Positions 22,701 through 24,988 of a stretch of 64,000 nt of DNA are shown here, piece after piece (positions within the stretch are counted from its first letter, which is position 1; each line of letters opens with the position of its first letter). The notes below the pieces were generated by a model. It worked only from the letters and a program-made list of their open reading frames with translations, did no database searches and was not told the origin of the DNA. The position numbers and the translations under genes are program-made. Origin of the DNA: Escherichia coli (lineage in GTDB: Bacteria; Pseudomonadota; Gammaproteobacteria; Enterobacterales; Enterobacteriaceae); the NCBI RefSeq assembly GCF_030013205.1, contig NZ_CP122648.1; one strand, given 5' to 3'.

Positions 22701-23433
22701 TCATATATTTATATATTTATATATATTGATTTTGCCATTCCGGAGGATTTTCATCATTCTTGTTCTAATTTTTAATTCATTACCCATCTTTTCTTCAAAA
22801 ATCTTAATGACATAACCCGGAAGTTTTTTTACAATTTCATTTGTTTTTTCTTCATTACCATAAACATATCCTAACTCATTAAGATACAGCTGTTCGCCCT
22901 CATACTTCTTAATTAATTGATAGAAGTACCACTTCGCAAAATCAGGTTGCTTCATGAAAAAATCCTTCAAAAAAATATCATTTACTAAAATACTGACAGG
23001 CACTTCATTAAATAGCAACTTAACATCATCAAATAACCTTAGTATTAAGCGTGATTTTTCTTGATTGCTTAAGTTAAAATTATTGACATATACAACCAAC
23101 TTCTCCCAAATCAATTCCTGTAACTCAGGGCTGTTTTTATAGGGTTCTTTATTGAGGTTGAAAAATAATGTCTCAGCTATTTTAGACTGATCGCAGTTAA
23201 AATCAATATGATCGATCACGGAGCGGGCATGCTTTATCGTTATAGTATCATCAGAATATTGCATACTTTGATTAAAACACCACTCCAGAATTTTTACATC
23301 ATTAATATATGGCAATTTTAAAAAAGTCTTCAACATCGAATCGATGACCTTTTCGAGATTAACTTTTGCATCATCTAAGGAATCAATAAGAATATTAGAC
23401 AGGTTAATTTTGATGTTATTAATTTCATCATTA
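22701..23433 (-). pseudogene. yjgL: yjgL C-terminal fragment (gene split by IS1)
   Basis: AT-rich ORF contiguous in frame with the IS1 end; continuation of the N-terminal fragment at 24197-24988. Confidence 0.7.
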
Positions 23434-23448
23434 GGTAATGACTCCAAC

Positions 23449-23952
23449 TTACTGATAGTGTTTTATGTTCAGATAATGCCCGATGACCTTGTCATGCAGC
23501 TCCACCGATTTTGAGAACGACAGTGACTTCCGTCCCAGCCTTGCCAGATGTTGTCTCAGATTCAGGTTATGCCGCTCAATGCGCTGAGTATAACGCTTGC
23601 TGATAACGTGCAGCTTTCCCTTCAGGCGTGATTCATACAGCGGCCAGCCATCCGTCATCCATACCACGACCTCAAAGGCCGACAGCAGGCTCAGAAGACG
23701 CTCCAGTGTGGCCAGAGTGCGTTCACCGAAGACGTGCGCCACAACCGTCCTCCGCATCCTGTCATACGCGTAAAACAGCCAGCGCTGACGTGATTTAGCA
23801 CCGACGTAGCCCCACTGTTCGTCCATTTCAGCGCAGACAATCACATCACTGCCCGGTTGTATGCGCGAGGTTACCGACTGCGGCCTGAGTTTTTTAAGTG
23901 GCGGAAAATCGTGTTGAGGCCAACGCCAATAATGCGTGCACTGGCGCGACAT
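23449..23952 (-). CDS. insB: IS1 transposase InsB (made as InsAB' by frameshift)
   Basis: [58 protein letters not shown]... Confidence 0.93.
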
Positions 23953-24146
23953 CCGACGCCATTCATGGCCATATCAATGATTTTCTGGTGCGTACCGGGC
24001 TGAGAGGCGGCGTAAGTGAACTGTAGTTGCCATGTTTTACGGCAGTGAGAGCAGAGATAGCGCTGATGTCCGGCGGTGCTTTTGCCGTTACGCACCACCC
24101 CGTCAGTAGCTGAACAGGAGGGACAGCTGATAGAAACAGAAGCCAC
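23871..24146 (-). CDS. insA: IS1 InsA (transposition repressor)
   Basis: [42 protein letters not shown]... zinc-finger N-terminus. Confidence 0.93.
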
Positions 24147-24196
24147 TGGAGCACCTCAAAAACACCATCATACACTAAATCAGTAAGTTGGCAGCA

Positions 24197-24988
24197 TCAC
24201 CCATCATTACCTTCTGTACCACTAGCAATTCTGGTATCATGTAACGCTTTCAGATCATTTATTTCTTCAAGTATACCACCTTCGCCTAGTAAGTATGGAA
24301 TCGTGTCATCACATACATGAGGCATTAATAGCAGATGTTCTTTCTTTATTTTTTCTAATGTACTGGCTAATGGCTTTTCTAATAACTCGTTATAATCAAT
24401 TGCGTCCTTCCAGTTCAACTGATGATTATTTAATAGAAGCGCCATATTCTTGTTAGCTTCGCGTTGGTAACACGCCAGAACCTTGTTAGTAATCAGATGT
24501 AATGAACTATCATCTTTTCTTTCAAAAGACTTACCTTCATAACGAAAACTCAAAAAATCAGATTGTGGAAATATAATGGCTGTATGTCCTTGACGAGTCC
24601 CCATAGTAGTGGTAGTAGAAAGTGAAATTTCTATAATCACCTTAGATGAATCCGCACGCTCACCTTCAGGATTATTCATAACAAAATTCATTATTTCACT
24701 GCCATCATTATTTTTGATATAAGATGAGGACTCAATATGAGCCATCATATTTCTACCCGCTTCGTTGGAGCGTTTGCTAAAATCCACATAACCCAGGGTA
24801 AATATTTTTGCCAAAAACTCCAAAAATGCTCCAGGAGATAGAATATTCCTTCTGCTATCCTGCCCCTCGGCATTACGAGCAAAATCATTCATTCCCACAC
24901 ACCAGGTATTTAAGACTTCATTTTTTGGTTTAACATTGTCGGCTGATGCCATGTGTTGATAACAATTCAAATCTGATATTTTTGCCAT
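24197..24988 (-). pseudogene. yjgL: yjgL N-terminal fragment (reading frame terminates inside IS1)
   Basis: MAKISDLNCYQHMASADNVKPKNEVLNTW...; stop codon lies within the IS1 terminus. Confidence 0.7.

Follow-up and report, generated by a model that had tools for sequence, protein, structure and literature searches.

A recent IS1 insertion divides yjgL in a porcine lineage of Escherichia coli

The window analysed here, a stretch of 64,000 bp of Escherichia coli DNA, has the K-12 gene order rraB, argI, yjgL, tabA, bdcR and bdcA, with yjgL on the same strand as tabA and present as two fragments on either side of a complete IS1 element (Table 1). The earlier note had described this as an IS1 that splits a single AT-rich gene, and both parts of that description hold. 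When the flanks are rejoined, they give one open reading frame of 503 aa that is homologous to K-12 YjgL and lies between argI and tabA, and the GC content of yjgL is 32.5%, compared to 50.6% for the window and 53% for IS1. The reconstructed frame matches K-12 YjgL at 81% over residues 1-183 (E 4e-100) and at 62% over residues 186-502 (E 1e-131), whereas the central LNNxQE repeat block of the K-12 protein is missing from it. Judging from synteny and homology, the flanking gene is a divergent orthologue of yjgL (b4253), a gene that is highly polymorphic among E. coli, with alleles sharing 85-100% identity. The element lies after codon 262, where the GC content within 50 bp of the insertion site is 30%, and the 5' fragment ends in ...GTEGND, followed by a glycine codon and a TGA that are supplied by the IRL end. 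Because argI, which comes after yjgL, is transcribed convergently to it, a polar effect on neighbouring genes is not expected.

Table 1. Features of the divided yjgL locus, in window coordinates
Feature	Position	Strand	Comment
Ancestral yjgL 3' remnant	22593-22700	-	35 conserved in-frame codons and stop; homology to the K-12 C-terminus
8-bp tandem repeat (TAAATATA/TGAATATA on the minus strand)	22677-22724	.	Contains the premature stop; copy number varies between strains
yjgL 3' fragment, codon 263 to in-frame TGA (22701-22703)	22701-23433	-	Without native start codon
Left target-site duplication (TSD) copy, 8 bp, CATCATTA	23426-23433	.	Single copy in the K_EC180 empty site
Complete IS1, IS1F-like isoform	23434-24201	-	768 bp; genes co-directional with yjgL
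IRR-type terminal inverted repeat, GGTAATGACTCCAACTTACTGAT	23434-23456	+	Unique within the window
insB' frame	23449-23952	-	23449-24146 with the -1 frameshift gives the 232-aa InsAB' transposase
insA	23871-24146	-	91 aa, GTG start; zinc-ribbon and HTH protein
A6C programmed -1 frameshift motif, TTAAAAAACTC	23887-23897	-	Intact
IRL-type terminal inverted repeat	24179-24201	-	Reverse complement GGTGATGCTGCCAACTTACTGAT; adjoins insA
Right TSD copy, 8 bp, CATCATTA	24202-24209	.	Direct sequence reading
yjgL 5' fragment, codons 1-262	24202-24988	-	ORF continues into the IRL end and stops at 24197

YjgL itself gives little family signal. The only one in Pfam is a match to the SopA-like central domain (PF13981), which scores 20.5-24.6 bits across three alleles, below the cut-off of 27, and spans residues 268-333 of the reconstructed protein and 342-407 of the K-12 protein; this sub-threshold match is reproducible, and a search of NCBIfam returned nothing.

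The ends of the element are those of IS1. Its left end, GGTAATGACTCC, is of the IRR type, while its right end, GGCAGCATCACC, is the reverse complement of GGTGATGCTGCC and of the IRL type; the two 23-nt terminal inverted repeats both begin with GGT(A/G)ATG and are imperfect, with arms that are 83% complementary. The interval of 23425-24210 given previously does contain the element and its TSD, although it is one base too wide at each end. As had been claimed, an 8-bp direct repeat, CATCATTA, abuts both ends, and the empty site of strain K_EC180 has a single copy of it. The duplication is exactly 8 bp rather than 9, as the neighbouring base differs at each side. It was verified by direct comparison, since the pair is absent from the repeat-tool list, which probably takes CATCAT for a 3-base run. 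Of 63,216 window positions, only 5 have an identical 8-mer 776 bp away, and the composition-adjusted probability is ~4e-5; chance pairing is a poor explanation of the flanking repeats.

One further likeness at the left junction drew our attention. Read in inverted orientation, window positions 23428-23435 (empty-site sequence TCATTACC) match the outermost 8 bp of the IRR end, forming a small palindrome of TCATTA followed across the junction by GGTAATGA. A general resemblance of targets to IS1 ends was considered and rejected, as none of 10 other sites has a match of at least 7 nt. The four terminal IS1 8-mers have 17 chance occurrences in the window, and the likeness of the target to the IRR end is probably a coincidence. 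We also rejected a composite transposon or a larger IS1-bounded element: a search of the 64-kb window for a second IS1 end of this type found none, leaving a single copy.

The coding content is likewise that of a complete IS1, as originally proposed, with insA and insB', an intact A6C motif and the transposase domains all present between the inverted repeats. A simulated -1 slip at TTAAAAAACTC yields an uninterrupted InsAB' of 232 aa in which Zn_ribbon_InsA (PF03811, 73.9 bits), HTH_Tnp_IS1 (PF12759, 88.8 bits) and DDE_Tnp_IS1 (PF03400, 248.5 bits) all score above their curated cut-offs, and which reaches 242.8 bits against the NCBIfam model NF033558 (transpos_IS1; cut-off 100). The identical CDS in strain ETEC4079 is annotated by PGAP as WP_236281370.1 with the remark "programmed frameshift". 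The element agrees with the IS1 family in every defining property open to an in silico test, namely length, inverted repeats, A6C frames, transposase domains and a TSD of 8-10 bp.

Among known isoforms, the closest comparison is IS1F of K-12 MG1655 (NC_000913.3, 4518472-4519239), which is also 768 bp long, aligns without gaps at 96.0% nucleotide identity and has the same inverted repeats and insA/insB' layout. The two differ by 31 substitutions and in coding state: the K-12 insB7 is annotated as a pseudogene, whereas the InsAB' frame in the window is intact. IS1A (also IS1B, IS1R), the prototype of K-12 and plasmid R100, shares the length, termini, A6C frameshift and domains and again aligns without gaps, but identity falls to 93.4% (51 substitutions), and the InsB' N-terminus in the window is unlike that of IS1A.

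This IS1F-like isoform is uncommon and unevenly distributed. A copy with at least 99% identity to the window element is found in only 150 of 9,595 IS1-bearing records, and the 100%-identical isoform (WP_236281370.1) occurs almost only on chromosomes and plasmids of pig-derived E. coli, including UMNF18, O139:H1, O141:H4 and Belgian, Japanese and Korean isolates. K_EC180, for example, carries a 100%-identical copy at selB. This pig-associated distribution suggests a host-associated expansion of the isoform. The earlier note had also raised the possibility of a high IS1 load in the strain, and here the closest genome, ETEC4079, is informative: it has ~21 copies (21-22 IS1-end matches on the chromosome; 18-21 in its relatives), while the median among genomes with any IS1 is 10-11. 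The load is thus roughly twice the median and not extreme.

Canonical IS1 duplications are mostly 9 bp long, and a "variant IS1" of the older literature makes 8-bp duplications. We therefore compared the yjgL copy with sequence-identical copies at eight other sites, five of which have their own duplications (9, 9, 9, 8 and 8 bp). The remaining three have none, as expected after IS-mediated rearrangement. Because identical copies elsewhere carry their own 8- or 9-bp duplications, the IS1F-like isoform appears to be mobile, and the copy in yjgL is apparently active. The same set leads us to reject an isoform-specific 8-bp TSD, since other identical copies show 9 bp too; IS1A- and IS1B-like insertions in yjgL likewise mix the two lengths. 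Target-site duplications of IS1 have been documented at 8-10 bp (PMC3031569), and the 8-bp TSD at yjgL is normal both for IS1 and for this isoform.

The insertion itself is demonstrated by comparison with an empty site. Removing IS1 and one copy of CATCATTA in silico gives a sequence of 2,125 bp that is 100% identical, without gaps, to the chromosome of the porcine strain K_EC180, which proves an insertion with an 8-bp duplication. When 100-bp junction-spanning queries were compared with 5,426 complete E. coli genomes, with a single contiguous match required, both junctions were found in only one, ETEC4079 (Belgium, pig faeces). Its yjgL::IS1 locus (NZ_CP122643.1, 4462081-4462948) has the same junctions, IS1 sequence and 64-kb context as the window, and the genome aligns to all 64,000 bp with zero mismatches and one 8-bp gap, the sole difference being one extra 8-bp unit in the tandem array at the 3' side of yjgL. 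The window thus belongs to a sister isolate of ETEC4079. At least 14 other porcine strains (O139:H1, the ETEC40xx series and others) are 100% identical to the window over a right flank of 24.8 kb; in a yjgL-spanning search, the insertion was absent from these strains and was found only in ETEC4079. Many strains with a 100%-identical flank carry the empty site.

Because strains with identical flanks have the empty site, the junctions occur in only one of the 5,426 genomes and the IS1 shows 100% identity to copies at other places in related strains, the insertion is recent. This is also what the earlier note had concluded from the intact duplication, which on its own is weak evidence of recency; it is the comparative data that establish it. 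On comparison with relatives, we saw neither flanks from different genes nor an empty site that lacks a single CATCATTA at the junction, either of which would have spoken against the original reading. That reading is supported in every element, with two qualifications: the weakness of the TSD as a measure of age, and an early stop in yjgL that preceded the insertion.

The early stop is an in-frame TGA at codon 504 of the pre-insertion gene (22701-22703), which lies inside the 8-bp tandem repeat, such that the gene that IS1 entered did not have the full-length, K-12-equivalent frame. The frame ends 36 codons before the K-12-equivalent stop, with the loss of ~36 conserved C-terminal codons. PGAP annotates the empty-site yjgL as a pseudogene both in K_EC180, with the remark "internal stop", and in EC101, with the remark "frameshifted; internal stop", while a near-identical 503-aa version in B1.H1.39 is annotated as an ordinary protein. 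The number of 8-bp units in the array differs among strains: the window and K_EC180 have 4, ETEC4079 and EC101 have 5, and B1.H1.39 has 10. The units carry TGA or TAA, and so the ORF always ends within the array. This variation in copy number could reflect slipped-strand hypermutability or an error of long-read assembly.

IS1 has also entered this region in other strains. In RMDEC332, YJ3, ST131 4224, E24, 13C1065T and ET625, we find IS1 in yjgL or at its 3' border. Like the window copy, these six are full-length (767-768 bp by BLAST boundaries), lie in or beside the same AT-rich gene and have their own TSDs, of which four are 8 bp and two are 9 bp. They differ from it in site, TSD, isoform (IS1A-like or IS1B-like) and yjgL allele. 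The six are independent insertions, which together with that in the window makes at least seven independent IS1 events in or beside yjgL, a region equivalent to window positions 22560-25000, in different E. coli lineages. The data do not support yjgL as a hot spot for IS1: ~28 of 5,426 genomes have a same-orientation IS1 within a 2.5-kb query spanning yjgL, compared to ~20 predicted from a median of 11 copies per 5 Mb, and the insertions fall at seven or more sites with none recurrent. We also rejected an orientation bias; although seven of seven insertions are co-directional with yjgL, this is an artefact of the search, in which only same-strand IS1 reaches 80% query coverage.

Taken together, we regard it as nearly certain that, in a recent ancestor of the porcine lineage, an IS1F-like copy entered yjgL by transposition at codon 262/263. 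The steps are those of established IS1 biology, which we infer to apply to the yjgL insertion as well. InsA would be translated from the upstream frame, and ribosomes that on rare occasions slip by -1 at the A6C motif would produce the DDE transposase InsAB'. This protein would bind both terminal inverted repeats of ~23 bp, make staggered cuts in the target 8 bp apart and join the IS ends to them, after which repair of the single-strand gaps would leave the CATCATTA direct repeat. The outcome is a bisected yjgL, with a 5' half that ends one codon into IS1 and a 3' half that has neither promoter nor start codon. IS1 prefers AT-rich targets, and the low GC content of yjgL and of the site fits this preference.

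Two other routes to the same structure have some basis in the data, and our comparisons yielded no evidence that contradicts transposition at yjgL. An IS1-bearing segment could have come from another strain, in which the insertion was already present, through homologous recombination, as the polymorphism of yjgL suggests recombination in the region and IS1 insertions in the gene are known in other lineages. However, the flanks match the empty-site allele of this very lineage at 100% identity, the window junctions occur in no genome among the 5,426 besides ETEC4079, and the isoform is already resident in the lineage, as the copy at selB illustrates; we consider such an acquisition very improbable. 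A misplacement of an IS1 copy into yjgL during assembly deserves mention because misassembly is a well-known problem with IS elements and ~20 IS1 copies are present in the lineage. Yet a perfect 8-bp TSD that adjoins the IS1 termini exactly is the mark of genuine transposition, and ETEC4079, an independent complete assembly, has the identical structure, so that an artefact is less credible still. A third alternative concerns the gene rather than the element, namely that yjgL was already non-functional or decaying through its repeat-borne premature stop and that IS1 made a neutral hit in a pseudogene. In its favour, the codons beyond the TGA inside the repeat stay in frame and show homology to the K-12 C-terminus (NEQLGKLNPPENLRIAIEKFGW), the empty-site gene is a pseudogene in the PGAP annotation of two strains, many genomes have a yjgL marked as frameshifted or partial, and the region has tolerated at least seven independent insertions. 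Against this, a 503-aa version from this allele family is treated as intact in the annotation of B1.H1.39, the loss of 36 of ~540 residues need not abolish function, and YjgL is uncharacterised, leaving no functional criterion by which to call the gene dead. We consider this alternative a real possibility that falls somewhat short of an even chance.

Transposition into yjgL in the porcine lineage is compatible with either state of the gene. From the reading frames, the decay of yjgL may have begun before IS1 arrived, which changes the consequence of the insertion and not its reality. A broader scenario can be offered only tentatively, and we would sooner bet against it: that yjgL is in active decay across E. 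coli through a hypermutable 8-bp tract and recurrent capture of IS1 by AT-rich, presumably H-NS-bound DNA, with a parallel expansion of the IS1F-like isoform in pig E. coli.

The exact yjgL::IS1 locus is already public and correctly annotated in RefSeq, where PGAP shows two yjgL pseudogene fragments in ETEC4079 with an IS1 family transposase between them, and the event is ordinary rather than novel. A literature search on yjgL::IS1 found nothing relevant. The insertion is a textbook case for IS1, in a gene that is non-essential and uncharacterised, and it offers no new insight into transposition or into the function of YjgL. It does add a data point on the mix of 8- and 9-bp duplications made by the IS1F-like isoform, and its junction is a lineage marker by which a sub-clone of porcine ETEC or edema-disease E. 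coli could be told apart.

Several other features of the window are worth recording. Positions 1-8400 are the terminal part of a genomic island next to tRNA-Leu(CAA) (8295-8379) and contain a site-specific integrase, a recombinase-family protein, an HTH protein, a frameshifted DUF1643 gene and an AbiJ-NTD4 domain protein, the last of which may have a defence function. In both ETEC4079 and K_EC180, the annotation marks yjgN (window 19011-20207) as a pseudogene that has an internal stop. REP-type repeats (Rfam naRNA4) are found at 15308-15606, 43186-43263 and 49426-49504, with the members of a tandem pair between pepA and holC being 93% identical to each other, and a magnesium riboswitch lies upstream of mgtA (32894-33009); these repeats and the riboswitch are ordinary.
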